Part shown: positions 4,282-30,430 of the stretch, piece after piece
Layout: each line of letters begins with the position of its first letter
Numbering within the stretch: position 1 is the stretch's first letter
Origin: Pasteurella multocida
GTDB lineage: Bacteria > Pseudomonadota > Gammaproteobacteria > Enterobacterales > Pasteurellaceae
NCBI RefSeq assembly: GCF_900187275.1
Contig: NZ_LT906458.1
Location: 1,740,001 to 1,772,000, forward strand
Reading direction: 5' to 3'
DNA length: 32,000 bases
Program-made: the position numbers and the translations under genes
The notes under the pieces: generated by a model
Told to the model about the DNA's origin: nothing
Databases searched by the model: none
What the model saw: the letters and a program-made list of their open reading frames with translations, nothing else

Positions 4282-6699
4282 TTAGAAATGGATGTTTAAT
4301 CCTAAAGTCACATTACGCCCCATCTGCGGTACAAAGGGTAAAAAAGAAGTATGAGAATAAACTTTACGGTTTAACACATTATTTGCTTGAACAAATAATT
4401 GATAATTTACCCCAGCTATTTGGCGTGAATAATCCACTCCGATATTTAATAAACTATATGCAGCCGTTTGATTTTCTAACGGCGCTACTTTCTTTTGTTG
4501 ATAAACGTAAGTGTATTCGAGTGAACTTGTTAAACTCTCAGTCATCTCCATATTCACACGAAAGCCTAAACGCATTGGCGGGACACGTGGTGCGTCTTGA
4601 TCAGGTTGAGGAACGGGTTCTAAGCTATTCACCACATGATCGACACGGTACGTTGGCGGTAAATCATACAGTTTTCCACGCACATAATCACCAAAAAGTC
4701 CCATGTGCAGTTCAGGTGTCAACGCATAGTCAATACGCCCTTCCACACCATAATATTTCGCTTTGGATTGATTATAACGATTCAAAGATAAATTACCGGA
4801 TTTGTTCAATGTTTGATTAAAAATCCGATTTTTAAAATCATTGTAATATACATTCACTTTATAACTTAGCTTGTCACCAAGATACGCAAGACCGACTTCC
4901 CAGTTATCAGAAACTTCTTTTTTCAGATTACGATTGCCATGTTCAAATGACACCGTCGCTAAATGTTTGCCGTGGTAATACAATTCCATCGGTGTTGGGT
5001 GACGTTCGTTATGTGAGTAAGTCAAAGAAAGGGTGTAGTCAGGCGTCATATTCCAACTGATAGCACCAGAATAAGAGGTCGCGCGATCATGATAAGAGGC
5101 AAAATCAGGTGCTGGATAACTGCCTTGACGACATCCTGATGGGCTATAAAAGAACGAATTCGGATCACAGCCTTCTAGCTTTCGCTTTACTTTAAACAGC
5201 CAAGCGCGATCATATTCAATATCAATGCGTTGTTTTTCCGTACGTACACCAATTTCAAATAAAAAATCTTGCCAACGCAATTGTTCTATAGCAAAAAAAC
5301 TCATTTGTGATTGAGTATTTTCAATCAATGCCCATGACTTACGATCACCCTTAGTGATTTTGGACGGATCGCGTTGCTTTTTCTTATGACAAGGATCGCT
5401 TGCATTATTTGAGCATGGTGCAATACGCGGAATATTCGCACTGCTGGTTTGTGTTTGATACTGCGCCCCTATAACGCCACTCAACCCCGCTATGGGCGTA
5501 TGGAAAATTTCTACGCGCAGGTTATATCCGTTATTTTTAAATAAATTCACGGCGATATTGCCATCTTTTTCATCGTGTTTATAACGGGTTTCCGAATAAC
5601 TGAGTTTGATTTTCTCAATCGCTTTCATCGGCTGTTTGACTTCAGCACGTATGTCATAACGTTTAGCATAAGAATCAATCAATGGACCGGCAATAGAATG
5701 GTCATGATCGTGACCGTACGGATGATCATGACTGTGTTTTCCATCCATGTCATGATTTGATCCACAATGGAAATGCGTATTTACTAGATCCGTATCATGC
5801 ATTAAATGAGGATAAAGCCCTAAATAATAGTCATTACGTACATTGCCACCCCAAATATGCGCAGCACAACTATCTAGCTTATGGTTATGTCCCGGTAACC
5901 CATATTTCTCACGACGAAGATTGTAGGCAAAACCGACATAACCTCGCTCACCGATAAAAGCCACACCATAGTTACCTGACTTCGTTTTATTTTGAGTATC
6001 GGGGACATAATTTAATGTTTTGTCTAGCTTAAATGCTGGCACATGGTAATTATTTGAGCCACGTAACAGTTCTTCTACCCGTAAAGCAATGTGCTTACCT
6101 AACCCGAAAGTCAGTGCAGCCGTTACCAATTTTTCATGACTATTCGTGTTATAACGCGTGTTGAAATCCACTTCATAGCCCTTTTGAGGAAGCTGTGTTG
6201 GAATGCGTTTATCTACTACATTAATCACACCAGCAGGTGACGCATTGGCATATAACAATGTTGAGGCACCACGTACAATTTCGACTTGCTCTGCCAATAA
6301 CGTATCGACACCAATCGCATGGTCAGGAGAAAGTTGAGACATATCAATGACATCAGAACCATTTTGTAAGATTTTTAAACGCACGCCTTCCTGTCCTCGA
6401 ACGACAGGTGCACTGGATCCACCACCAAATTGATTACTATGTACACTGAGTTCACCCGCTAACGCATTACCTAATGTACTGGATCCTGTTTTTAATTTTT
6501 GCTTACTGACTAAAATGTCATTTTGTTTTGGTAAGCCGGAAAGGGGATCGCTACGAAAAGCAGCACCTTTCGACTCCACACTAATTTCATCTAAAAAAAC
6601 AATTTGCTTCTTTTCTGTATTTGCCCAAACTACTTGCGGAATGCAACACATCATCAAAACAGCAAAAAATTTATTTACTTTACAACCTCTTGAAATCAT
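4282..6699 (-). CDS. TonB-dependent outer-membrane receptor with a His/Asp-rich surface loop (ZnuD-like, candidate zinc or other metal receptor)
   Basis: 805 aa with signal peptide ...CCIPQVVWA-NTEKK, a TonB-box-like QIVFLDEISV and a plug domain (SAPVVRGQEG...IEIVRGASTLLY). The C-terminal barrel ends ...TLGLNIHF. The His/Asp cluster is HLMHDTDLVNTHFHCGSNHDMDGKHSHDHPYGHDHDHS. AAGGAG ribosome-binding site before ATG 6699. Confidence 0.88.
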   Translation of the reverse strand: MISRGCKVNKFFAVLMMCCIPQVVWANTEKKQIVFLDEISVESKGAAFRSDPLSGLPKQNDILVSKQKLKTGSSTLGNALAGELSVHSNQFGGGSSAPVVRGQEGVRLKILQNGSDVIDMSQLSPDHAIGVDTLLAEQVEIVRGASTLLYANASPAGVINVVDKRIPTQLPQKGYEVDFNTRYNTNSHEKLVTAALTFGLGKHIALRVEELLRGSNNYHVPAFKLDKTLNYVPDTQNKTKSGNYGVAFIGERGYVGFAYNLRREKYGLPGHNHKLDSCAAHIWGGNVRNDYYLGLYPHLMHDTDLVNTHFHCGSNHDMDGKHSHDHPYGHDHDHSIAGPLIDSYAKRYDIRAEVKQPMKAIEKIKLSYSETRYKHDEKDGNIAVNLFKNNGYNLRVEIFHTPIAGLSGVIGAQYQTQTSSANIPRIAPCSNNASDPCHKKKQRDPSKITKGDRKSWALIENTQSQMSFFAIEQLRWQDFLFEIGVRTEKQRIDIEYDRAWLFKVKRKLEGCDPNSFFYSPSGCRQGSYPAPDFASYHDRATSYSGAISWNMTPDYTLSLTYSHNERHPTPMELYYHGKHLATVSFEHGNRNLKKEVSDNWEVGLAYLGDKLSYKVNVYYNDFKNRIFNQTLNKSGNLSLNRYNQSKAKYYGVEGRIDYALTPELHMGLFGDYVRGKLYDLPPTYRVDHVVNSLEPVPQPDQDAPRVPPMRLGFRVNMEMTESLTSSLEYTYVYQQKKVAPLENQTAAYSLLNIGVDYSRQIAGVNYQLFVQANNVLNRKVYSHTSFLPFVPQMGRNVTLGLNIHF

Positions 6700-7800: not shown

Positions 7801-8595
7801 TTACACCTTAGAGGCATGATCGTCATTAAAATATTGGTTCATATCAAAAGCGGGTTTCGCCGCTTGATCGCGAGCAATCACACGTGCCGGTACCCCCGCT
7901 GCGGTGGTATATTCAGGGACAGGTTGTAAAACAACCGAGTTTGCCCCAATTTTGGCATAACGTCCCACTTCAATGTTACCCAAGATTTTTGCCCCAGCAC
8001 CAATCATCACACCTTCGCGTACTTTAGGATGACGATCGCCACACTCTTTACCCGTACCACCCAAGGTGACGCCTTGTAAAATCGACACATCATTTTCAAT
8101 CACCGAGGTTTCTCCCACCACGATGCCTGTCGCATGGTCAAACATAATGCCACAACCAATTTTAGCCGCAGGATGGATATCCACATCAAAGGCGACCGAG
8201 ATTTGGTTTTGTAAATAAACAGCTAAGGCTTTCCGCTCTTGTTGCCATAAATAATGGGTAATCCGATAACTTTGCAAGGCATGAAAACCTTTTAAATATA
8301 ACAGTGGCGTAGAATATAATTCCACCGCGGGATCGCGTTGACGCACCGCACGGATATCACAGGCAGCACTGGCAATGATGTCAGGATCCGCCTGATAAGC
8401 TTCCTCAATAATTTCTCGCAAAGCAATGGCGGGCATAATCGTATTTGCCAATTTGTTGGCTAAAATATAGCTTAATGCATTACCAAGATTATGATGTTTC
8501 AAAATCGTTGCGTGAAAAAAGCTGGCCAAAATTGGCTCATTTTCTGCTAAGGTTTTTGCTTCCTGACGGATGTCCGTCCAAACCGCTAATGGCAT
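7801..8595 (-). CDS. cysE: Serine O-acetyltransferase CysE
   Basis: 264 aa. It has the N-terminal SATase helical domain (WTDIRQEAKTLAENEPILASFFHATILKHHNLGNALSYILANKL) and the left-handed beta-helix hexapeptide repeats (IHPAAKIGCGIMFDHATGIVVGETSVIENDVSILQGVTLGGTG). Confidence 0.93.
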   Translation of the reverse strand: MPLAVWTDIRQEAKTLAENEPILASFFHATILKHHNLGNALSYILANKLANTIMPAIALREIIEEAYQADPDIIASAACDIRAVRQRDPAVELYSTPLLYLKGFHALQSYRITHYLWQQERKALAVYLQNQISVAFDVDIHPAAKIGCGIMFDHATGIVVGETSVIENDVSILQGVTLGGTGKECGDRHPKVREGVMIGAGAKILGNIEVGRYAKIGANSVVLQPVPEYTTAAGVPARVIARDQAAKPAFDMNQYFNDDHASKV

Positions 8596-15642: not shown

Positions 15643-16272
15643 ATGAAACAATCTATTCGCCACCAAAAAATTCTTGATCTCGTTACACAAAAAGGCTACG
15701 TCAGTACAGAAGAGCTGGTTAGCCTCTTAGATGTCAGTCCCCCGACTATTCGTCGTGATTTAAATGAGCTGGCTGAGAAAAATTTAATTCGTCGTCATCA
15801 TGGTGGTGCTGCCTCGCCCTCTACGGCAGAAAACAGTGATTATGAAGATCGGAAAAACTTCTTCTTGAAAGGGAAAAACTGCATTGCTCAGCGAGTTGCC
15901 AGCTTAATTCCAAACGGTGCTTCCTTGTTTATTGATATTGGTACCACACCAGAAGCGGTAGCGAAGGCACTCTTAAATCATCAAAAATTACGCATTGTGA
16001 CCAATAACATTAATGCCGCTTATATCCTAATGCAAAATGAAACCTTTGATATTATTTTGGCGAGTGGTTCATTACGTCAAGACGGGGGGATTATTGGTGA
16101 GGCAACCGTTGCCTTTATTTCACAATTCCGTTTAGATTTTGGTATTTTAGGTATCAGTGGTATTGACTTAGATGGCTCACTGTTAGACTACGACTACCAT
16201 GAAGTACAGGTCAAACGCGCCATTATCGAAAGTTCTCGCCAAACCTTATTAGTGACGGATCACTCCCTGTAG
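15643..16272 (+). CDS. glpR: DeoR-family glycerol-3-phosphate regulon repressor GlpR, C-terminally truncated reading frame (209 aa; possible pseudogene)
   Basis: The N-terminal HTH (YVSTEELVSLLDVSPPTIRRDLNELAEKNLIRRHHGGA) and most of the DeoR sensor domain (LFIDIGTTPEAVAKALL..., IIGEATVAFISQFRLDFGILGISGID, DYHEVQVKRAIIESSRQTLLVTDHS) are present. The frame stops right after DHS, where E. coli GlpR (252 aa) continues for about 43 more residues. Confidence 0.8.
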   Translation: MKQSIRHQKILDLVTQKGYVSTEELVSLLDVSPPTIRRDLNELAEKNLIRRHHGGAASPSTAENSDYEDRKNFFLKGKNCIAQRVASLIPNGASLFIDIGTTPEAVAKALLNHQKLRIVTNNINAAYILMQNETFDIILASGSLRQDGGIIGEATVAFISQFRLDFGILGISGIDLDGSLLDYDYHEVQVKRAIIESSRQTLLVTDHSL

Positions 16273-16430: not shown

Positions 16431-17119
16431 AGGCCACCCTATAAGGGCCTAGTACTTCACATGCCCCTCAAGGGGCATGTGAATTCTGACAACCGTTCAA
16501 TAACTCTGTTGCCTACCCCTTAAAGGGGTCCATATATTCTTTCTTCGATAAATTATCCTGAATCATATCTTCCTTTTCCTGATTTCGGATATATTCCTCT
16601 ACAATTTTTGTATTTAAACCTACTGTACTTACATAATAGCCTTTCGCCCAAAAATTTCGATTCCCATACTTATATTTCAAATTTGCATGTCTTTCAAATA
16701 TCATTAGCGATGACTTACCTTTTAAATACCCCATAAAACTTGAAACGGCCAGTTTCGGAGGTATCCTTAACAGCATATGGATATGCTCTTTCATTGCATA
16801 TGCCTCTATTATCTCTACATTCTTGTAGTGACATAATTGTCTTAGTATCCCTCCTATATCAACTCGCAATTTTCCATAAATTGCTTTTCTCCTATACTTA
16901 GGGATAAAGACTATGTGGTACTTACAGTTCCATCTTGTGTGTGATAGACTTGAATCGTCATTGGATTTACTTGCCATGACTTATCCTCCTATATGTTGAA
17001 TTTTGGTTGTCAGCCTTGTTCATTATAGGAGGATGTTTTGTTCTGCTCACCGCTTAAGCTTTTCTGTTCCATACGCAAAGCGTATGGTTTTTATAGCTAG
17101 ACTTTGTCTAGCTATAATG
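16431..17119 (-). mobile_element. IS200-like insertion sequence (IS200/IS605 family, tnpA only); ends approximate
   Basis: This ~0.69-kb unit contains only a Y1-transposase gene. Subterminal hairpins occur on both sides: TTCACATGCCCC-tcaa-GGGGCATGTGAA at 16456-16483, CCATACGC-aaa-GCGTATGG at 17069-17087 and TATAGCTAGAC-ttt-GTCTAGCTATA at 17092-17116. A 10-bp stem (16984-16993 / 17024-17033) sequesters the tnpA Shine-Dalgarno sequence. There are no terminal inverted repeats, as expected for this family. Confidence 0.75.
16513..16977 (-). CDS. tnpA: IS200/IS605-family Y1 (HUH) transposase TnpA
   Basis: 154 aa. The sequence CKYHIVFIPKYRRK, the HUH motif in EHIHMLLRIPP and the catalytic-Tyr block AKGYYVSTVGLNTKIVEEYIRNQ are present. 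AGGAGGA ribosome-binding site upstream. Confidence 0.92.
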   Translation of the reverse strand: MASKSNDDSSLSHTRWNCKYHIVFIPKYRRKAIYGKLRVDIGGILRQLCHYKNVEIIEAYAMKEHIHMLLRIPPKLAVSSFMGYLKGKSSLMIFERHANLKYKYGNRNFWAKGYYVSTVGLNTKIVEEYIRNQEKEDMIQDNLSKKEYMDPFKG

Positions 17120-17162: not shown

Positions 17163-18224
17163 TTACTCCACGGGATACCAATGTAATCGAGTAAATACGA
17201 GTTGGCAACTTTCACCCTCTTTTGGTCCGGGATCTCGACGCCCTTTCTGCACACGGAGTTCCTGATCACCCACAACAATATTGTAATCAATTACTTCGCC
17301 TAAATAAGAACGCCGTTTCACAACGCCTGTTACGCCGCCTTCATTGACAAAATCAATTTCTGACGGGCGCGTGGCTAAAATCGCTTTCCCTTGTTGCACC
17401 AGTGCTATTGGAGGCGAAGGTTGAATATGAAAAGTACCATCCAGTCCTGCAAAAGACACCCCTTGGGGAGATAAATTGACCTGTAATTGATTCGATAACC
17501 CAATAAAATTAAACACAAATTTATTGCTTGGGTTATTGTACACATTCAATGGCGTATCAATTTGTTCAATAAGTCCTTTCCTCATCACCAAAATCCGATC
17601 CGATAACGCCATTGCTTCGGCTTGGTCGTGAGTCACATAAATAATGGAAAAACCAAATTTACGTTGCAGGGCTTTAATTTCAAAGCGCATCTCTTCCCTT
17701 AAATGGGGATCTAAACTGGATAACGGCTCGTCAAGTAGCATCACATCTGGATTTAACGCCAAAGCACGTGCTAATGCCACACGCTGTTTTCCCCCGCCGG
17801 ATAAATCATCTGGGCTTTTTTGTGCAACGTTCAGCAAATTAGTGTGTTTTAACGCGTCATTCGTCCGCTTTTCGATTTCCTGTCTTGACACATTTTTCAA
17901 GGTGAGAGGAAATGCCACATTGTCATATACCGTCATATGCGGCCAGACCGCAAAAGCCTGAAACACCATCCCAAAATTACGTTTCTCTGGCGGTAAATAG
18001 AAATTAGTGATTTTGGAAGAAAGTAAACGATCGCCTACACGAATTTCTCCGCCGTCTAAATCTTCAAATCCTGCGATCATACGTAATGTCGTGGTTTTAC
18101 CGCAACCAGACGGTCCTAACATAGAAAAACATTCCCCTTTTTCAATACTGAGGCTCAGATCAGGAATGGCAATGACATCGCCGAATTTTTTCATCACATG
18201 ATTAAGTTGAATATAGCTCATCAT
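17163..18224 (-). CDS. ABC importer ATP-binding protein, copy 2 (PotA/FbpC/MalK-like with a C-terminal regulatory or TOBE-like domain)
   Basis: 353 aa. Walker A is GPSGCGKTT, the signature is [15 protein letters not shown], Walker B is MLLDEPLSSLD and the H-loop is YVTHDQ. It is the last gene of the operon. Confidence 0.9.
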   Translation of the reverse strand: MMSYIQLNHVMKKFGDVIAIPDLSLSIEKGECFSMLGPSGCGKTTTLRMIAGFEDLDGGEIRVGDRLLSSKITNFYLPPEKRNFGMVFQAFAVWPHMTVYDNVAFPLTLKNVSRQEIEKRTNDALKHTNLLNVAQKSPDDLSGGGKQRVALARALALNPDVMLLDEPLSSLDPHLREEMRFEIKALQRKFGFSIIYVTHDQAEAMALSDRILVMRKGLIEQIDTPLNVYNNPSNKFVFNFIGLSNQLQVNLSPQGVSFAGLDGTFHIQPSPPIALVQQGKAILATRPSEIDFVNEGGVTGVVKRRSYLGEVIDYNIVVGDQELRVQKGRRDPGPKEGESCQLVFTRLHWYPVE

Positions 18225-18242
18225 TTTCTCCTTAATATTCGG

Positions 18243-19937
18243 CTATTTCTGTGTTTTCTTCTCGGCATAACGTTTAATCACGGTTTGCCCAAACACAATA
18301 ATAATTAATGCAATACCCGCTAATGCTGCAGAATAAACCGTTTCGCCATCTTCATTCAGGGTATAAATCGCCACCCCGATCGTACGTGTTGACGGACCAT
18401 ATAACATGACCGAAACCGTTAATTCTCTTAATGCCGGTAAGAAAATGAGGAAGAAAGCAGCAATCATTCCCGGACGCACTAACGGCACGACAATATCTTT
18501 CAGCGATTGCCACATACTTGCACCACAAGCACGTGCTGCTTCAACTAAAGAGTCATGTACTTGTTCTAGCGCTGCGGAGTTGGCTTTTAGTGAGAACGCC
18601 ATGTAACGCGCAATATAGGCAATCAAAATAATCCATACTGTGTTGTATAAATTAATACCAAATTTACCGCTCCACGCTAAAATAACCCCTAACGCAATCA
18701 CCGAGCCGGGTACTGAGAATGGCAACATACCCAAGAATTCAAGAATTCCTTTGCCTTTCACTCGCATCTTCACAATGACATAAGAGATCATTACCCCAGC
18801 AAACATCGTTATCACTGCCGCGGCTAAACCTAATAGCACACTATTGCGGATCGCATCTTTAGTGAGCTGCCAGTCAAACAAGATAAATTTGTAGTTATCA
18901 AAGGTGAGATTTTCCCAAGTAATTGGCAGACCATAGGTTTTTAACCCTCCCACGATAAAAATCGTGACCGTTGGTAACACAATGGTAAACGCGATATAGA
19001 ACACACAAATAAACAATAATGGCATTCTTAATCCTCTGAGTTTCACCTCAACAGGACGGAAACTTTTACCCGCAATAATTTGGAAACGTCCACGATTAAG
19101 AATTTTATTTTGCAACCAAATAATCAACGCAGCCGTCACCACTAATACTGTCGCTAACACCGTTCCGGTCCGAATTGCCTCAAAACTCCCCGCACTTTGA
19201 TGGATACGTTCATAAATTAAGGTCGGAATATTGAAAATCCCATTTTCCACCCCTAATACAGCCACCGTACCAAAGTGAGCCATAGAGTAAAGCATAATCA
19301 ATAACGCACCCGACACGATACTCGGCATCACTAATGGAATCGTGATTTTACGTGTAATGGTAAAAAGACTGGCGCCAGAAATACGCGCTGATTCTTCTAA
19401 CGTCGGGTCCATACGCTCAAGTGCACCACATACTTGAATAAAGACGAAGGGGAACAAATACATGGTTTCTACCGCCATAATGCCCGTATAACTGTAGATA
19501 TTGAAAATCGGTTCCTCTAAACCAAACGTATCCATAAAGAAACGGTTAATATAGCCGGCACGAGGGGAAAGTAACATTTTCCAAGCTAACGCCCCAATAA
19601 AAGACGGCAACATAAAAGGCACGAGAAACATCACTTTCATCAGCCCTTTATAAGGCAAATCGGTACGTGTCACTAACCAGGCAAAAAATGTCCCCACGAT
19701 CGTACTCATGATCGTCACACCAACGGCAATGAATAATGAGTTCAATAAGGCTTCGTAGGTTTCTTTCTGTTTCAAAATATTGACGACATCGGTAACATTA
19801 AATTGCCCATTTACCCAAAAGGAATTAATAAAAATTAATAACACAGGGACAGCAACCACAATCACCAAAATCCCAATTGATAACGCTAAAATCGCATTCG
19901 CCACATTAAATGGACTTTTTTGAATCACTGCGGCCAT
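18243..19937 (-). CDS. ABC importer permease with fused double transmembrane domain (FbpB/AfuB/ThiP-like)
   Basis: 564-aa polytopic protein. It has two EAA-loop motifs: LEESARISGASLFTITRKITIPLVMP and LVEAARACGASMWQSLKDIVVPLVRPG. Confidence 0.9.
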   Translation of the reverse strand: MAAVIQKSPFNVANAILALSIGILVIVVAVPVLLIFINSFWVNGQFNVTDVVNILKQKETYEALLNSLFIAVGVTIMSTIVGTFFAWLVTRTDLPYKGLMKVMFLVPFMLPSFIGALAWKMLLSPRAGYINRFFMDTFGLEEPIFNIYSYTGIMAVETMYLFPFVFIQVCGALERMDPTLEESARISGASLFTITRKITIPLVMPSIVSGALLIMLYSMAHFGTVAVLGVENGIFNIPTLIYERIHQSAGSFEAIRTGTVLATVLVVTAALIIWLQNKILNRGRFQIIAGKSFRPVEVKLRGLRMPLLFICVFYIAFTIVLPTVTIFIVGGLKTYGLPITWENLTFDNYKFILFDWQLTKDAIRNSVLLGLAAAVITMFAGVMISYVIVKMRVKGKGILEFLGMLPFSVPGSVIALGVILAWSGKFGINLYNTVWIILIAYIARYMAFSLKANSAALEQVHDSLVEAARACGASMWQSLKDIVVPLVRPGMIAAFFLIFLPALRELTVSVMLYGPSTRTIGVAIYTLNEDGETVYSAALAGIALIIIVFGQTVIKRYAEKKTQK

Positions 19938-19939
19938 TG

Positions 19940-21028
19940 CTACCCCCTTGTTTGCTGAACATGTTGTTGATTATCAGTAAACCAAAGCAAATCATGGAAA
20001 TTAACGTAACAGTCTTCCCCCTCTTGGAACATCAAATCATGTTGCAATGCTTTATTGGTGGAAATTTCTGTTCGTAAAGACACGCCGTCAATATTAATCA
20101 TGTAATCCATTACGGCGCCAAGAAAACTGGCTCGCGCCACTTTACCTTTTAATCCTTCCCCAGATTTGCTCAAAATAATATCTGAAGGGCGACAACCTAA
20201 TTTGCCGGATTCCGCAGGCAGATTTTGCCATTGTAACGCTTGCTTACCTTGTCCAATAAAATGCTGTCCTTCTTCATAGCGCACATGGATAAAATTAGCT
20301 AACCCCATGAATTTAAACACCATTTCATTAGCAGATTTTTCATAAATCTCCCAAGGGGTACCAATTTGTTGAATATCACCGTTTTTATCCATAATGGCTA
20401 AACGATCGGAAATCGCGAGAGCAATCTCTTGATCGTGAGTCACATATAAAATCGTAATGCCCAGTTTCTTTTGTAACTCTTTGATTTCAAAACGCATTTC
20501 TTCTCGTAAATTCGCATCGAGATTATTTAATGGTTCATCTAATAACATCAAAGAGGGCTTCGCCACTAACGCACGTGCTAGCGCGACACGTTGTTGCTGT
20601 CCACCGGAAAGTTGGGAAGGTAAACGTTTTTCCAATCCCGTCAAATTGACCAAATTAACCACTTCCATCACTTGTTGCTGAATTAAGGCTTTATCTAAAT
20701 CCTTCAGCTTTAATGGATACGCAATGTTGTCGAAAACGGTCATGTGCGGCCAAACCGCATAATCTTGAAATACCACCCCCAGACTTCGTTGATCAGGGGG
20801 GATATCAATGCCTTCTGCTGGATCAGACACCACATGTTCGTCAATTAAAATGCGTCCGCTATCAGGCACGTCAAACCCGGCTAACAAACGAAGTAAGACC
20901 GTTTTACCACAGCCAGATGGTCCAAGTAAGGTAAAACATTCACCATCTTTCACTACAAGAGATAAATCTTTTAGCACTTCATTCGAACCAAACGCTTTAC
21001 TGACCTTTTCGAATGTGATTGTTGCCAT
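19940..21028 (-). CDS. ABC importer ATP-binding protein, copy 1 (PotA/FbpC/MalK-like)
   Basis: 362 aa. Walker A is GPSGCGKTV, the signature is [15 protein letters not shown], Walker B is [11 protein letters not shown] and the H-loop is YVTHDQ. It is clearly a paralogue of 17163-18224 and not an identical copy. Confidence 0.9.
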
Positions 21029-21042
21029 AGTGCACTCCTGTT

Positions 21043-22032
21043 TTATTGACGTCCTTGGAGGATTTGGGTGAATTTCTTCACAATCTCTTCTTTCTCCGTC
21101 AAGATTGCTTGATAATCAATCGGAATAGCACGACTAATCGCATCTTCTACTGTTGGCATACCTTCTAAGGTTGCAACACCTTTTCTCACTGGTAACGTAC
21201 CTTCATGCGCAATAATGTGTTGTGCTTCTTCAGACAATAAGAAATCAATGAATTTTTTAGCCGCAGCTGGGTTTTTGGTGCCTTTGAAAATCGCAGCAGG
21301 GCTTGGAATCACTAACATTTCTTTTGGATAGACCAATTTAAGCTGCGCACCTTTTTTGATTTTGTCGTTGGTAATATAATCCACCGCTAACGACGCTAAT
21401 AAGTCACCCGAGGCAGTATCATCCACGACTTGACCCGATCCTTTCCCCACTTTACCTTTATTAGCTTTGATTTTTTCAAAAAACTCCCAGCCAAAAGTCG
21501 ATTTCAACAAGGCAACACTCATATACGCCGTTCCCGATAAAGCCGGGTTAGCAATACCAAAAGCCCCTTTGTATTTTGCGCCCGTAATATCATCCCAGCT
21601 TGTCGGGGGCTCTTTCACAAAACGCGTGTTATAGGCAATACCTAAGGTACCTAAACGAATCGGTGTAAAGGAACCATCAAAATCTGGAATCGGGTTCACA
21701 ATATGCTCAACTTCAGGTGACACATACGCATCTAGCATGCCATTAGCTTTCATTTTAAAGAAATCCGGTACTTCACTGGTCCAAATGACATCTGCCATAA
21801 TTTGTCCTGATTCTTTTTCTGCAGCAATTTTTGCCATGAGTTTGCCTGCACCAGCAGATTGATAATCCATCGCAATGTCAGGATGCTTTTCGTTAAATTT
21901 TGTTTTTAACGCACCAATTAACGATTCTTTCATCGAGGTATAAACAATGAGTTTTTCATTTGCATGCGCAACACCTGCAATTGTCATACTTAATCCGAGT
22001 GCAATCAGGGCTGAAGAGAATGTTTTTTTCAT
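21043..22032 (-). CDS. Periplasmic substrate-binding protein of the ABC importer (Fbp/Afu/PotD-type, family 1 SBP); ligand unknown
   Basis: 329 aa with signal peptide MKKTFSSALIALGLSMTIAGVAHA-NEK. The start is typical of the SBP class (KLIVYTSM...SAGAGKLMAKI...ADVIWTS). It lacks an obvious Tyr-Tyr ferric ligand pair. Confidence 0.85.
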   Translation of the reverse strand: MKKTFSSALIALGLSMTIAGVAHANEKLIVYTSMKESLIGALKTKFNEKHPDIAMDYQSAGAGKLMAKIAAEKESGQIMADVIWTSEVPDFFKMKANGMLDAYVSPEVEHIVNPIPDFDGSFTPIRLGTLGIAYNTRFVKEPPTSWDDITGAKYKGAFGIANPALSGTAYMSVALLKSTFGWEFFEKIKANKGKVGKGSGQVVDDTASGDLLASLAVDYITNDKIKKGAQLKLVYPKEMLVIPSPAAIFKGTKNPAAAKKFIDFLLSEEAQHIIAHEGTLPVRKGVATLEGMPTVEDAISRAIPIDYQAILTEKEEIVKKFTQILQGRQ

Positions 22033-22176
22033 GATCTGATCCTTCCTATTTTGTGATGTATGAGAATGATTATGAGGGGGAGTTACTACTAAACTGATTT
22101 CATCTATCGTATGAAATTTAACCTACAATACCCCCCAAAAACACAAAATAAAAGTCTCGTCAATGTGCGACAAATC

Positions 22177-22226
22177 AGTCAAATTTAACTCATTTTGACA
22201 TGATATGGCTGTCAAAATTGACACAT
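22177..22226. promoter_or_regulatory. Cluster of four GTCAAA/TTGACA-type half sites forming nested inverted repeats; candidate response-regulator binding sites in the divergent control region
   Basis: The sequence is aGTCAAAtttaactcatTTTGACAtgatatggcTGTCAAaaTTGACAcat. It includes the perfect palindrome TGTCAA-aa-TTGACA (22210-22223) and ATTTTGACA-N9-TGTCAAAAT (22192-22218). Confidence 0.4.
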
Positions 22227-22411
22227 TTTCTCAAGCGATACGTCGCTTCCAATGATTTATGAAAAAAAGCCCTATAAATGACTCAAAATATCCGATAAGT
22301 CTTTAAAATATAAATTCTCTTTTTTTGAGATAGATCACAAAAAAAAGCCCCTATTCCGCCACTATTTTGGGTAAGATGACACAGTAAGATGGGTTAATCG
22401 ATGTGATCACT

Positions 22412-23647
22412 ATGCGCTCCAAAAGACAAAATTACATCATATACTTTGTCGTCACCTTATTGGCTTTTATTCACCCAATAAAAGCAGAGGAGCTCGTGAT
22501 CGGTACAACATTTGCTTTAGAGGGCGTGCAACATCTCATCAAGGAATGGAATAAACAACCCGATAGTTTCCCAATTACTACTTTAAACCGCACGAGTGCC
22601 TCATTAAATCAGCTGCTCTCTACTGAAAAAGCGCGTGAAGTTGATCTCATTCTGAGTTCATCTCCGATGCTGTTTTATAATTTACAGCATAAAAACAAGC
22701 TAGCCCCCTTACCTCCTAACATTGAGCATGACACACGCTTCCTCCCCGATCTCCTGCAACCGACCACGGTTGCTTTTGCACTGTCAGGTTACGGCATGCT
22801 TTTTAATATCCCGTTATTACAACAAACTCACTTACCTTTCCCGCAATCTTGGCAAGATCTTACACATCCGGATTTACAAGGGCTCGTGATTATCAGTAGC
22901 CCTACGCGATCAGACACAAATCACATCATGGTAGAAGCGCTATTACAGCGCTATGGTTGGCAACAAGGGTGGGAATTAATTGAAAAAATTATGTTGAATG
23001 TGGGGACAATTTCATCACGCAGTTTTGGGGTGGTGGATAAAGTGCAAGCGAATTTAGGCGCGGTGGGCATTACTATTGATAACTATGCACATATTTTAAC
23101 AACACAAGATCAATCACATTTAGCTTTTCATTATTTTCCTGATTTTCCAATTTCGCCAACCTTTATTGCTGTCGTAGCAGAAAGTCGCAAAAAGCAACAC
23201 GCATTCCGCTTTATTCGCTTTTTACTCAGTGCCACAGGTCAACAAATCCTAACCGATCCGCAGATGAGCAAATACCCGATTACCCCACTGCCTGCAAGTC
23301 ATCCTCAAGCCGCACTACAACAGCAACTCTTCGCTCAGCCTCCACTGAACTATCATCTGTTAATTAAGCGGCAAGAATTAGTCAAATTATTATTTGAACA
23401 ACAAATTACTCACCGTTTAAGCTTATTGAAAGAACATTGGCATCTATTACACCAAAAAGAACGCGCGTTGAATCGACCGCTTCCTGAGCTACGCCAAATT
23501 CTCACTGCCTTACCAGTATCCGCAGAACAAGCAGAAAATGATGATTACTTAACCCATTTTAATCGCAGCCAAGAATTACTTAATTGGCAACATTTTTTTA
23601 TTGCCCAGCAACTTGCTTTCGTTAACGCATTGGAAAATCAAGAATGA
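22412..23647 (+). CDS. Secreted binding-protein-like sensor component (PgtC-like modulator) with a C-terminal helical extension
   Basis: The start is placed at ATG 22412, giving signal peptide MRSKRQNYIIYFVVTLLAFIHPIKA-EE. The body follows the same SBP pattern as the transporter SBP (ELVIGTTF...W...DLILSSSP...). It is followed by a ~110-aa Gln/Leu-rich tail. Its stop codon overlaps the kinase start codon (ATGA at 23644-23647). Confidence 0.7.
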   Translation: MRSKRQNYIIYFVVTLLAFIHPIKAEELVIGTTFALEGVQHLIKEWNKQPDSFPITTLNRTSASLNQLLSTEKAREVDLILSSSPMLFYNLQHKNKLAPLPPNIEHDTRFLPDLLQPTTVAFALSGYGMLFNIPLLQQTHLPFPQSWQDLTHPDLQGLVIISSPTRSDTNHIMVEALLQRYGWQQGWELIEKIMLNVGTISSRSFGVVDKVQANLGAVGITIDNYAHILTTQDQSHLAFHYFPDFPISPTFIAVVAESRKKQHAFRFIRFLLSATGQQILTDPQMSKYPITPLPASHPQAALQQQLFAQPPLNYHLLIKRQELVKLLFEQQITHRLSLLKEHWHLLHQKERALNRPLPELRQILTALPVSAEQAENDDYLTHFNRSQELLNWQHFFIAQQLAFVNALENQE

Positions 23648-25626
23648 AAAAATGGTTGAAACATTTAGATTTGAGCACTGGCTTACAACTGTCTTTTCTG
23701 ATCAGTGGGCTACTTTGTCTGTTTGTCGGTGGCGTGGGGCTTTATACTTGGCAGCAACAACGCACGGAAATCAATTTCGCACTCGATAAAGATTTTCCTA
23801 AAGTGCAAGCCGCGTTTCAAACAGAAGAACAAATTAATATCCTCCATCATGCCTTTATCCATTTGGTCAATGTCAAAAACACCAATGAGAAAGTCGAACG
23901 CTACAACCATGCAAAGCAACAGCTTTCGACGTTAAAGGAACTGATCATTGAATTAGATGAAAATTTAGATGAGGATTTGATGGCATTATTACAGCAACAA
24001 GCCTCACTTTTAGAACAAATATCACAAAATATCACAGGTACGCTCACGTTAAACGATGAACTGAATAAAACCATTTCTCAAATCAACTGGTTACATAATG
24101 ATTTTCACAATGAATTCACCGCACTTTTGCAAGAAATGAGCTGGCAACAATCTACTCTGGCTAACAATATTGTTCAACAGCCACACAACAAACAAAAAAT
24201 CGAACAATTAAAAAAACTGCAACAAGAATTATTGTTAGTTTACGATTTCACTACTTATGAAGAGCAAATTATCACAGAATTACGCACTCAGATAACAGAG
24301 CCAACTGAAAGCAATGTCATTCGACTACACAATTATTTGAGCTATTTATCGTTATTAATTACTAACCGAATTCAGTTGCTTGGTCTTCATTCCTCCACGT
24401 CAACCATTAAACAAATTTTAGATGAACTGATTAACTTTGGCTTAAACCCACAAGCACTCCCCGCCCTGTTTGCAATCCGTACCGAACTGAACCAACAACG
24501 AGAACAGCTGATTCAACAAAGTGATAAGATATTCGAGGCATTTCGCGAGCAAATCAGTACTCAAATTGGTAACAGTAAACAACAATTACATTTACTGCAT
24601 AATATTGTCGAAAAAAGTACTACATTCAACGGCGCATTAATTTTATTGGTGATGCTATTTGCGGGAATTTTTGTCATCGGTATTAACTTCTTTTATATTC
24701 GTTTACGTCTCTTAAAACGTTTTCAACAACTTAACCACGCCGTAGTTCAATTAACCAATGGCGAGCCCAACGTCAAAATCGCCATTTATGGCAATGATGA
24801 ATTAGGGCGGATTGCTAAATTATTGCGCTTATTTCTGTTCGAAATGAATCACAAAACAGAAGAGTTAAAATCGCGTAATCAAGTTCTCTTAGAGGAAATC
24901 GAACACCGTATTGAAGTACAAACCGCATTAGAAAATGCCCAAAATGAACTAACCCAAGCCGCAAAACTGGCTGCTGTCGGTAAAACCTTGACTTCGATTA
25001 GCCATGAAATTACACAACCACTTAATGCCATGAACGCTTATTTGTTTAGTGCGAAAAAAGCCGTGAGTAAACAAAACAGTGAGGCAGCACTTGAATACTT
25101 AAATAAAATCAATCATTTAGTTGAACGCACGGCGCTGATTGTCAAACGCTTACGGCAATTCTCACGCCAAGGGAGCGGCAAAATACAAGCTGTCAATTTA
25201 ATGGATTGTATTCAAAGCGCGTGGGAATTATTGGAATCACAACATAAACCGCGTCAAAGTCAGCTCATCACGCCCACAGATTTACCACTCGTATTAGGTG
25301 AAGATGTCCTTATCGAACAAGTGTTTGTCAATCTCTTCCTCAATGCTTTAGAAGCCATTGAACACACACCGCCCCAAATTCATATTGACGTTGACAGCGA
25401 TAATGCGGAAGACCTCTGTTTATGGATCACCGACAATGGTCAAGGTTGGCCCTTAACTGACAAGTTATTGCAACCTTTTTCGAGCAGTAAATCGATCAAT
25501 TTAGGTTTAGGACTATCCATTAGTCAATCCATCATGGAGCAATGTCAAGGATCATTGACCATTGCCTCTACTCTCACCCATAATGCATTAGTGATATTAA
25601 AATTTAAGGTGGCTCAACATGTTTAA
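23644..25626 (+). CDS. Sensor histidine kinase with a large periplasmic domain (PgtB/DctB-type, partner of an NtrC-family regulator)
   Basis: 660 aa. TM1 is at about aa 14-36 and TM2 at about aa 329-352, bracketing a ~290-aa helical periplasmic region. A HAMP-like linker follows. The H-box is SISHEITQPLNAMNAYL (His454), and the N/G boxes are NLFLNALEA, DNGQGW and GLGLGLSISQSIM. Confidence 0.88.
   Translation: MKKWLKHLDLSTGLQLSFLISGLLCLFVGGVGLYTWQQQRTEINFALDKDFPKVQAAFQTEEQINILHHAFIHLVNVKNTNEKVERYNHAKQQLSTLKELIIELDENLDEDLMALLQQQASLLEQISQNITGTLTLNDELNKTISQINWLHNDFHNEFTALLQEMSWQQSTLANNIVQQPHNKQKIEQLKKLQQELLLVYDFTTYEEQIITELRTQITEPTESNVIRLHNYLSYLSLLITNRIQLLGLHSSTSTIKQILDELINFGLNPQALPALFAIRTELNQQREQLIQQSDKIFEAFREQISTQIGNSKQQLHLLHNIVEKSTTFNGALILLVMLFAGIFVIGINFFYIRLRLLKRFQQLNHAVVQLTNGEPNVKIAIYGNDELGRIAKLLRLFLFEMNHKTEELKSRNQVLLEEIEHRIEVQTALENAQNELTQAAKLAAVGKTLTSISHEITQPLNAMNAYLFSAKKAVSKQNSEAALEYLNKINHLVERTALIVKRLRQFSRQGSGKIQAVNLMDCIQSAWELLESQHKPRQSQLITPTDLPLVLGEDVLIEQVFVNLFLNALEAIEHTPPQIHIDVDSDNAEDLCLWITDNGQGWPLTDKLLQPFSSSKSINLGLGLSISQSIMEQCQGSLTIASTLTHNALVILKFKVAQHV
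24118..24126 (-). repeat. Uptake signal sequence core (Hin-type USS)
   Basis: Perfect ACCGCACTT inside the histidine kinase gene. It is the only perfect USS between 16360 and 28068. Confidence 0.9.
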
Positions 25627-26872
25627 TCCTGCCTATAACGTACTCTTAATTGATGACGACATGGATATTCTCGATTCTTATCAGGATTTATTACGACAAG
25701 AAGGCTATCAAGTGATCACCTGTGCAGACCCGATAGATATTGTGGCGCAAATTCCAGAAAACTGGATTGGGATCATCCTTTGTGATGTCTTGTTGCCCAA
25801 TATTTCAGGTTTAAAAATCTTAGAAGATATCATTCAACGCGATGCACAGATTCCTGTGATTATGATCACGGGTCACGGTGATGTTCCCATGGCAGTGGAG
25901 GCTGTCAAAAAAGGCGCCACAAATTTTCTTGAAAAACCCATCTCAGCAGAAAATTTACTGATTCAAGTCGCACAAGCATTAGAAAAACGCGCTGCCTTAA
26001 TGGAAAATCGCCAATGGCAATTAGAAAAGCTGAGCGAAAGCTTTATTGGTCAAAGTGAATGGATTATCGCTATGCGCCACCAGCTACAAAAACTCGCCGA
26101 CATTGATGTCCCCCTCTTTTTATGGGGAGAAACGGGCACTGGACGTTATCTTTCTGCCACTTACTTACATAAACTCAGTGCCCGTCAGAACGCTCCGTTT
26201 ATTTATCATGAATGTTTACCGCAAGCACAATGCAACCTAGACAAATGCCTAGACGATGTACAGCAGGGCACACTGGTGTTAAAAAATATCCACCATTTAG
26301 CACAAACGGAACAGCAACATTTAGCCAAAGCCTTAAATATGGAAGGATGCGCCTTTAGGCTGATCTTAATCAGTGATTTTGCACTGCTCACGCTCATTCA
26401 AGAACAACGGATTTGCTCAGAACTGTATTATTTATTTTTACATACGCAATTTGAATTATTGCCACTCAAAAAACGCCCCAGCGATATTCTGCCTATCTTC
26501 TGCCATTATGTGCATAAAAGTTGCGCCAGATTAAATAAAGAGTACGTCGAACCTAATAAAAAATTAATACAACATTTACTCACACAAACTTGGCAAGGCA
26601 ATGTCAAAGAGCTTATCCATGTGGCAGAATTATATGCGATTGGCTTATTGGCAGAACAAACGCCAATGAGCAATCCCCTTGCCCTTAAAACAGAGCATAT
26701 CAAACCGCTTGATGAACAGATCAATGAATATGAAAAACAAATCATTGAAGATGCGTTAATTTTTTATCAAGGGCGAATTAATGATGTGGCGACTTATCTG
26801 AATATTCCACGTAAAAAACTCTATTTGCGTATGAAAAAACACCATATCGATAAAAAGCACTATAAATGTTAG
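25619..26872 (+). CDS. NtrC/PgtA-family response regulator with a degenerate (apparently ATPase-dead, GAFTGA-less) AAA+ central domain
   Basis: 417 aa. The receiver is intact (DD12-13, D56, K105). The central domain has GETGTGR in place of GxxGxGK and TLVLKN in place of hhhhDE, and there is no GAFTGA. A C-terminal Fis-type HTH is present (INDVATYLNIPRKKLYLRMKKH). It overlaps the kinase stop codon by 8 nt. Confidence 0.85.
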   Translation: MFNPAYNVLLIDDDMDILDSYQDLLRQEGYQVITCADPIDIVAQIPENWIGIILCDVLLPNISGLKILEDIIQRDAQIPVIMITGHGDVPMAVEAVKKGATNFLEKPISAENLLIQVAQALEKRAALMENRQWQLEKLSESFIGQSEWIIAMRHQLQKLADIDVPLFLWGETGTGRYLSATYLHKLSARQNAPFIYHECLPQAQCNLDKCLDDVQQGTLVLKNIHHLAQTEQQHLAKALNMEGCAFRLILISDFALLTLIQEQRICSELYYLFLHTQFELLPLKKRPSDILPIFCHYVHKSCARLNKEYVEPNKKLIQHLLTQTWQGNVKELIHVAELYAIGLLAEQTPMSNPLALKTEHIKPLDEQINEYEKQIIEDALIFYQGRINDVATYLNIPRKKLYLRMKKHHIDKKHYKC

Positions 26873-29848: not shown

Positions 29849-30430
29849 ATGACATTTCCTTTATTTGAGACGATCGCTATTGTGAACGGTGAAATTCAGC
29901 ACCTTGCCCTGCATCAACAACGTTATGCGGCAAGTTTGGCGACCTTTTACGGCGAGAAAGGAGCGAAAGTACAGGATCTTGCGAAAATTATTCAGATTCC
30001 GACCGCACTTGAACACACTCAACATGCGCCGATAATCCGTTGTCGGATTGATTACAATCAGCAAGACTGTGACGTGCATTATTTTCCCTATCAACGCAAA
30101 ATTTACCGCACTTTTCAGCCTGTCATTTGCGATGAAATTAACTATGATCTGAAATATGCTGATCGGGCATTATTAAATCAGTTATTTGCTCAGCGTAGGG
30201 ATTGTGATGAGATTATGATTATCAAACACGGCAAGGTGACGGATTGCAGTATTGGTAATCTGGTGTTTCGCCAAGGTGAGCAATGGTTCACGCCAGATAG
30301 CCCGTTATTTTACGGCACACAACGAGCCTGGTTATTACAACAAGGCAAAATTCAAGCCCGTTCCATCTTATTGCAAGAGATCGCACAATTTGAAGAAATT
30401 CGGTTAATTAATGCACTAAATCCGCTGTAA
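29849..30430 (+). CDS. Aminodeoxychorismate lyase-like protein (short class IV aminotransferase-fold protein, PabC-like)
   Basis: 193 aa starting 4 nt after pabB. The beginning LFETIAIVNGEIQHLALHQQR is typical of fold-type IV PLP enzymes. The later blocks KYADR, DEIMII..GKVTDCSIGNL and TPDSPLFYGTQR also fit. Confidence 0.6.
   Translation: MTFPLFETIAIVNGEIQHLALHQQRYAASLATFYGEKGAKVQDLAKIIQIPTALEHTQHAPIIRCRIDYNQQDCDVHYFPYQRKIYRTFQPVICDEINYDLKYADRALLNQLFAQRRDCDEIMIIKHGKVTDCSIGNLVFRQGEQWFTPDSPLFYGTQRAWLLQQGKIQARSILLQEIAQFEEIRLINALNPL
30002..30010 (-). repeat. Uptake signal sequence core (Hin-type USS)
   Basis: Perfect ACCGCACTT. Confidence 0.9.
30105..30113 (-). repeat. Uptake signal sequence core (Hin-type USS)
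   Basis: Perfect ACCGCACTT. Confidence 0.9.

Follow-up and report, generated by a model that had tools for sequence, protein, structure and literature searches.

Relatives of the enhancer-binding proteins that have lost the GAFTGA motif and work with sigma-70 are an established class, which includes TyrR, DhaR, VpsR, NtrX and the NtrC proteins of Rhodobacter capsulatus and Caulobacter; such GAFTGA-less relatives were handled as non-sigma-54 regulators by Francke et al. in 2011 (PMC3162934). PgtA, the response regulator of the PgtCBA–PgtP phosphoglycerate transport regulon of Salmonella and other Enterobacterales, is needed in Salmonella for induction by 3-phosphoglycerate, as reported in a 2024 study of S. 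Typhi. In the same study, the substitution G173D in the P-loop of PgtA caused loss of function in vivo, an effect that was explained by a presumed contact with sigma-54. Here we analyse a PgtA-like regulator of Pasteurella multocida, encoded in a 32,000-nt stretch of contig NZ_LT906458.1 (positions 1,740,001 to 1,772,000 of the forward strand; hereafter the window). The 417-amino acid open reading frame (ORF) at 25619–26872 on the plus strand is PM1460, the 3′ gene of a pgtC-pgtB-pgtA-like operon. We find that its central domain has the AAA+ fold and is stripped of the elements used for ATP hydrolysis and sigma-54 contact, and we consider it likely that the protein is a PgtA-family two-component response regulator working independently of sigma-54.

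Many P. multocida genomes encode a protein (P0001; PM1460 in strain Pm70) with 100% identity to the product of this ORF, and databases name it, together with the whole family, a ‘sigma-54-dependent transcriptional regulator’. Its best NCBIfam model is PgtA (NF047793; residues 3–416 aligned, profile of 414 positions), with 547.1 bits, below the 650-bit equivalog cutoff. Pfam resolves a receiver (REC) domain, a short AAA+-like central domain, a lid and a Fis-type helix-turn-helix (HTH). The receiver domain (residues 8–116; 25640–25966, plus strand, as for all parts of the protein) matches Response_reg (PF00072, E 3.5e-27). It has D12, D13, D56 and K106 as conserved columns both in an alignment of the regulator with 14 relatives and the NtrC, ZraR, PspF, TyrR and DhaR proteins of the E. 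coli MG1655 record (alignment A1) and in the family alignment (A3). A preliminary description of the locus had named the same three aspartates and placed the lysine one residue early, at 105. A long α5-linker helix (residues 110–141; 25946–26041; AlphaFold2 pLDDT >90) leads from the receiver to the central domain, and the phmmer matches of the regulator to NtrC1 (E 6e-41) and DctD run on through this region. The central α/β subdomain (residues 141–283; 26039–26467) is an AAA+ core without the L1 and L2 insertions, as seen in its Pfam assignment, PDB entry 3n70, the alignment gaps and the AlphaFold2 model. Sigma54_activ_2 (PF14532) covers residues 143–283 with 77.6 bits; the canonical Sigma54_activat profile (PF00158) matches at positions 2–58 of 168 only. 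The lid (residues 285–340; 26471–26638; AAA_lid_14, PF25601, 32.3 bits) keeps a sensor-II-like PLxxRxxDI motif, in which the family has Arg or His at position 286 and an invariant D289. In the Fis-type HTH (residues 370–408; 26726–26842; HTH_8, PF02954, 28.9 bits), the recognition region IPRKKLYLRMKK hardly varies across the PgtA family, and the A3 columns from R398 to K407 are invariant. Domain matches and conserved columns agree with the earlier view that the receiver and the HTH are intact.

The AlphaFold2 model of the regulator, built with 72 family members as input, has a mean pLDDT of 89 and an AAA+ core of five strands in which hairpin insertions are absent. Its best solved matches in Foldseek are NtrC1 (1ny5, the top match, E 2e-25), NtrX and VpsR. 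The nearest solved structure by sequence is PDB 3n70, a ‘Transport activator’ that is the central domain of E. coli PgtA (E 1.4e-27).

Alignment A1 locates the losses within this fold. The P-loop remnant GETGTGR (residues 170–176; 26126–26146) has Arg176 in place of the Walker A lysine of canonical GESGTGK, and the Walker B strand GTLVLKN (26267–26287) carries K222-N223 (26282–26287) in place of the Asp-Glu pair of GTLFLDE. An ICSELYYLF block (26411–26437) stands where canonical proteins have FREDLYYRL, and both arginine fingers are gone, here and in the family alignment. Compared with NtrC, ZraR and PspF, a 19-column deletion lies exactly over the canonical ESELFGHEKGAFTGA and the remaining GAFTGA/L1 loop, and a second deletion of 11 columns removes the pre-sensor-I/L2 insertion. 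The preliminary description had reported the arginine-bearing P-loop, the Lys-Asn pair, the altered FREDLxYRL block and the missing GAFTGA motif, all of which the alignment bears out at the same coordinates; the shortened distance between PFIYHEC and QGTLVL is also real, at 16 residues and not about 17. Misalignment had been raised there as a way in which the reading could fail. With NtrC, PgtA homologues and GAFTGA-less relatives aligned, none is seen, and the lysine, the Walker B acids and GAFTGA are absent. The central domain thus retains an AAA+ fold but is predicted to be incapable of canonical ATP hydrolysis or remodelling of the sigma-54 closed complex, because L1, L2, the Walker A lysine, the Walker B Asp-Glu pair and the arginine fingers, by which a bona fide sigma-54 enhancer-binding protein is recognized, are all missing.

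These substitutions are fixed across the family, which makes them, on the alignment, neither a chance feature nor specific to one genome. Among 117 full-length cluster representatives (43–100% identity to the query, P0001 included), a regular-expression search for a GAFTGA-like motif returned none. The P-loop glycines G170, G173 and G175 are present in 116 of 116 relatives, and position 176 is Arg in 114 of them (98%) and Lys in two. At the Walker B pair, the family has Lys, Ser, Arg or Gln at position 222 and Asn or His at 223. The central domain is as strongly conserved as the receiver, the family alignment holds 41 invariant columns, and the P-loop remnant is the best-conserved part of the central domain, a pattern that indicates strict purifying selection on it. 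The same motif losses occur in PgtA of Citrobacter, Escherichia, Klebsiella, Serratia, Yersinia, Providencia and Edwardsiella. As taxa, all of these are known to have rpoN. The degeneracy is therefore an old, family-wide trait that predates the split between Pasteurellales and Enterobacterales and is unrelated to the loss of rpoN in Pasteurellaceae; the link to rpoN loss in Haemophilus-type genomes that had been drawn earlier does not hold.

The family itself is small. When the central domain was searched against 1.8 billion representatives at 50% identity, only 10 clusters matched at E <= 1e-30, and the best 150 matches comprised about 20 proteins with a P-loop Arg, 61 with Lys and no GAFTGA, and 55 canonical ones. 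Because about 20 Arg-type proteins stand beside 61 Lys-type GAFTGA-less proteins among these best 150, PgtA is, by this count, a small clade set within the larger population of GAFTGA-less proteins that was already known. Two family members, P0052 (locus L012, Zophobihabitans entericus) and P0128, have a P-loop Lys (GEMGTGK and GEHGSGK, respectively), yet neither has Walker B acids or GAFTGA, and the two could represent either intermediates or reversions. Separately, a 455-amino acid P. multocida protein annotated ‘helix-turn-helix domain-containing protein’ (P0056) is 99% identical to the C-terminal 47% of the regulator only, a sign that the allele is disrupted or re-started in some P. multocida strains.

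The genomic setting is that of a pgt system. The first gene, at 22403–23647 (plus strand), encodes a PgtC-like, membrane-associated co-sensor of the solute-binding-protein type (Pfam SBP_bac_6), and pgtC holds the same position in nine loci. The second, at 23644–25626 (plus strand), encodes a PgtB-like sensor histidine kinase (Pfam HAMP, HisKA and HATPase_c) whose best NCBIfam match is NF047794, at 602 bits and thus under the cutoff of 1000. The three ORFs (22403–23647, 23644–25626 and 25619–26872) overlap in series, with 8 nt shared between the end of pgtB and the beginning of pgtA; the overlapping stop and start codons therefore point to one pgtCBA-type operon, with the regulator in the place of pgtA. 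Divergently transcribed from it is a four-gene operon for an ATP-binding cassette (ABC) importer (17163–22032, minus strand), which comprises a binding protein (21043–22032), an ATPase (19940–21028), a fused permease (18243–19937) and a second ATPase (17163–18224) and is probably the target of the regulator. The divergent gene is thus not the pgtP of the major facilitator superfamily (MFS) that accompanies PgtA elsewhere. Distant kin of the binding protein are AfuA, which binds sugar phosphates (4r72, E 4.9e-22), and P5PA, which binds pyridoxal phosphate (6wce). Synteny of pgtCBA with a divergent ABC importer is also found in Aggregatibacter, Actinobacillus succinogenes, Gallibacterium and Zophobihabitans. 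An MFS transporter gene, as expected for pgtP, takes the divergent position in Citrobacter, Yersinia, Edwardsiella and Actinobacillus capsulatus. Because the divergent gene is of the ABC type in some loci and of the MFS type in others, the sensor–regulator cassette is paired with transporters of two kinds.

The intergenic region between the divergent operons (22033–22402) contains a conserved repeated element. Two 19-nt direct repeats (D1), GTCAAATTTAACTCATTTT at 22178–22196 (box 1) and GTCAAAATTGACACATTTT at 22211–22229 (box 2; both plus strand), lie 33 bp apart, a distance of three helical turns. Each has a quasi-palindromic 12-bp core, GTCAAwwTTGAC, and the two P. multocida copies alone yield the 19-mer consensus GTCAAAwTTGACTCATTTT. 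Box 1 is conserved in an alignment of the region from Pasteurellaceae (A2), as is a column block over a weaker third box-like element, AAATGACTCAAAAT, at 22276–22289 (plus strand). The P. multocida-derived 19-mer matches the spacer between the transporter gene and pgtC in all eight other loci, ABC and MFS types alike, so that the element is found over nine loci (for instance, at 4468–4493 of L008, 3638–3656 of L010 and 3463–3481 of L011). In a 17-kb Citrobacter locus, there are two overlapping matches, against 0.03 expected, both in the pgtP–pgtC spacer; in Yersinia ruckeri and Edwardsiella, the sole match in 15 kb, with one mismatch, falls in the transporter–pgtC spacer. Paired TTGACTCA elements 32–33 bp apart are also seen in Aggregatibacter and Citrobacter, and the two-box spacing of 32–33 bp is kept in Pasteurella, Gallibacterium, Aggregatibacter and Citrobacter. 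Because the 19-mer recurs in all loci and the HTH recognition region is nearly invariant, we propose the box as a probable PgtA operator. We found no description of this conserved 19-nt box in the searchable literature.

A shorter degenerate pattern, AWWTKACNCAWWW, was tried as a test for the box and was replaced by the 19-mer; it holds too little information (two matches against 1.1 expected). Elsewhere in the window, a match with two mismatches to the box consensus, probably due to chance, lies within the 5′ end of a cysE-like ORF (GCCAAAATTGGCTCATTTT, 8525–8543). About 70 bp 5′ of pgtC, a second kind of element, TTTGAgatagaTCACA (22324–22339, plus strand), resembles the CRP consensus, TGTGA-N6-TCACA. 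Four Pasteurellaceae genera show no variation in its GATCACA and TTGA columns, a hint that the divergent operon pair is under catabolite control.

Neither the host nor the target region provides for a sigma-54 route. In the census of Francke et al. (PMC3162934, additional file 1), strain Pm70 has zero sigma-54 genes and zero true activators, two Pm70 UniProt PF00158 proteins, ‘PM0908/PM1460’, are marked false, and both counts are also zero for other Pasteurellaceae. The pattern TGGCAC-N5-TTGCW matched the window 167 times against 163 expected, the level of chance, and had no match in 22033–22402. A strict scan for −24/−12 elements (GG/GC core, at most three mismatches) found none in this region or in eight orthologous pgt-type intergenic regions, the nine including three from enterobacterial genera; the E. 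coli positive controls glnAp2, pspA and zraP/zraS were recovered at one or two mismatches. The earlier expectation that the regulator cannot act through sigma-54 has stood up well, and we regard it as well supported by the motif, promoter and census evidence together.

These observations converge on a model in which the PgtC-like and PgtB-like pair would detect an extracellular organophosphate and PgtB would phosphorylate D56, and this phosphorylation would rearrange a receiver–linker dimer like that of NtrC1 and DctD. Dimers of PgtA would then fill the two boxes 33 bp apart in the divergent intergenic region and, by analogy with other family members, might assemble further through their central domains. 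The resulting complex would recruit sigma-70 polymerase to the divergent ABC importer promoter, or stimulate it there; the conserved CRP-like site may add catabolite control, and the conserved Arg-bearing P-loop would probably serve domain integrity or non-hydrolytic ligand binding.

Several points weigh against this model. That the host has no rpoN is taken from the 2011 census, which covered strain Pm70, and not from a scan of the source genome. A sigma-70 consensus scan of the intergenic region returned no −35/−10 pair; the minus-strand intergenic sequence, inspected by eye, likewise offered no convincing pair. Occupancy of the boxes by PgtA is deduced from their conservation only, and the higher-order assembly from analogy. 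The inducer and the transported substrate are uncertain in P. multocida, because the divergent operon encodes an ABC importer instead of PgtP and the regulator scores under its cutoff; as both the PgtA and the PgtB scores lie below the NCBIfam equivalog cutoffs, signal and substrate may differ from 3-phosphoglycerate. Finally, the strict conservation of the P-loop, together with the S. Typhi G173D allele, argues against a central domain that is a mere scaffold, such as the dead module for oligomerization alone that the preliminary description had suggested. The numbering of this substitution is confirmed on the Citrobacter and E. coli homologues (E141, G173 and H223). The P-loop would thus either bind a phosphate-bearing ligand without hydrolysis or be structurally essential.

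The first of these options leads to the alternative that survives best, although we hold it only tentatively: the central domain could be a non-hydrolytic ligand-binding module whose G-E-x-G-T-G-R loop binds a nucleotide or another phosphate ligand that licenses oligomerization or activation, a part that ATP plays for TyrR and NtrX. It refines the sigma-54-independent model and does not exclude it. The complete conservation of the P-loop glycines and the 98% conservation of Arg176 across relatives 43–100% identical would follow naturally, G173D is a loss-of-function allele, and NtrX, a GAFTGA-less structural neighbour, has been crystallized with ATP and ADP. In other P-loop NTPases, Lys-to-Arg mutants of the P-loop commonly keep binding and lose hydrolysis. 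On the other hand, there are no Walker B acids for Mg2+, Lys or Arg often occupies the Asp position, the arginine fingers are missing, and G173D might just misfold the domain. A more specific version, which we consider a long shot, makes the central domain a pseudo-ATPase in which the Arg-type P-loop would bind a nucleotide or the imported organophosphate, as a second cytoplasmic input that gates assembly on the phased boxes for sigma-70 activation. If this were true, PgtA would represent a distinct mechanistic subclass of enhancer-binding-protein derivatives.

Somewhat more probable than that version, if still unlikely, is a simple dimeric DNA-binding activator or repressor in which the central domain is a mere spacer and no higher-order assembly forms. 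The 12-bp palindromic core of each box fits one dimer, and the AlphaFold2 monomer model is silent on oligomers. However, the fixed two-box spacing of 32–33 bp, kept in four genera, suggests cooperative occupancy of one face of the DNA, and a spacer would not need a central domain conserved as strongly as the receiver. That the regulator is a genuine sigma-54 activator, working through an unrecognized rpoN or an unconventional contact surface, we judge highly improbable: the ‘sigma-54-dependent’ of its database names speaks for it, but every sigma-54-specific motif is missing, Pm70 is without rpoN (PMC3162934), and the nine target regions, rpoN-carrying hosts included, hold no −24/−12 element. 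Weakest of all is a decaying NtrC-type remnant without present function, which the degenerate catalytic motifs might suggest and which we reject on the conservation pattern, since many P. multocida genomes carry an identical, intact ORF, two bacterial orders share the same fixed substitutions, the family alignment has 41 invariant columns, the operon structure and operator candidate are conserved, and the Salmonella orthologue is necessary for 3-phosphoglycerate induction.

Sigma-54-independent action by PgtA bears on how the family is described. The preliminary description of the P. multocida regulator as a rewired enhancer-binding protein is right at its core and overstated as a discovery, because PF14532 is a separate Pfam family, PDB 3n70 has been solved and the 2011 census had already marked PM1460 as a false activator. 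PgtA goes unmentioned in a review of the enhancer-binding proteins of Salmonella, and the searchable literature yielded nothing tying PgtA to GAFTGA and nothing on sigma-54 that names PgtA. What we do not find explicit there is that PgtA is more reduced than most of the GAFTGA-less class, that its loci share a conserved operator candidate, and that sigma-54 is still invoked for it. To judge from the aligned motifs, the 2024 explanation of the S. Typhi mutation by a sigma-54 contact cannot be right, because the mutation lies in the P-loop remnant of a domain without a sigma-54 interface. Treating PgtA as a sigma-54-independent, ATPase-dead derivative would correct regulon predictions in Pasteurellaceae and enterics and would offer a compact natural case of an AAA+ activator turned into a conventional sigma-70 regulator, and the candidate PgtA box provides an operator prediction, open to direct test, for systems of organophosphate uptake that serve in infection.

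Two other genes in the window appear incomplete. A glpR-like DeoR repressor gene (15643–16272) encodes only 209 amino acids, ends in VTDHSL and matches the DeoRC profile up to position 137 of 160; directly after it, on the opposite strand, is an IS200/IS605-family Y1 transposase gene (16513–16977). Because the product is short and the transposase gene adjoins it, the glpR-like gene looks cut short by the insertion element. Downstream of pabB, a pabC-like ORF for a class IV aminotransferase (29849–30430) encodes 193 amino acids that match positions 124–214 of a 223-position Pfam profile only; its start may be mis-set, or the gene may be truncated.

Among described systems, the PgtA of Salmonella and other Enterobacterales is shared in three-domain layout and length, at 44–47% identity, in the identical set of losses (the P-loop Arg and the missing Walker B acids, GAFTGA/L1, L2 and arginine fingers), in a pgtC-pgtB-pgtA operon divergent from a transporter and in the same operator-like box. 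The P. multocida regulator differs in scoring 547 bits against the 650-bit cutoff of NF047793 and in its probable target, an ABC importer of four genes whose binding protein is AfuA/P5PA-like, in contrast to the MFS antiporter PgtP. With canonical activators of the NtrC1/DctD type, it shares the receiver, the long coiled-coil linker and the overall fold, but it is without any catalytic or sigma-54-contacting element. It has the AAA+-like fold without a sigma-54 contact loop that typifies the NtrX/VpsR/TyrR class, whose members likewise combine a REC or sensor domain with an AAA+-like domain and a Fis HTH, and Brucella NtrX (5m7n-p) and Vibrio VpsR (7v2b) are among the best structural matches of its model. 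E. coli TyrR and DhaR also have no GAFTGA in alignment A1; unlike the regulator, both keep the Walker A lysine and TyrR also the Walker B Asp-Glu pair, and NtrX binds ATP and ADP. Relative to this class, the PgtA type has gone further, having lost the lysine, the Asp-Glu pair and the arginine fingers, with L1 and L2 cleanly deleted.

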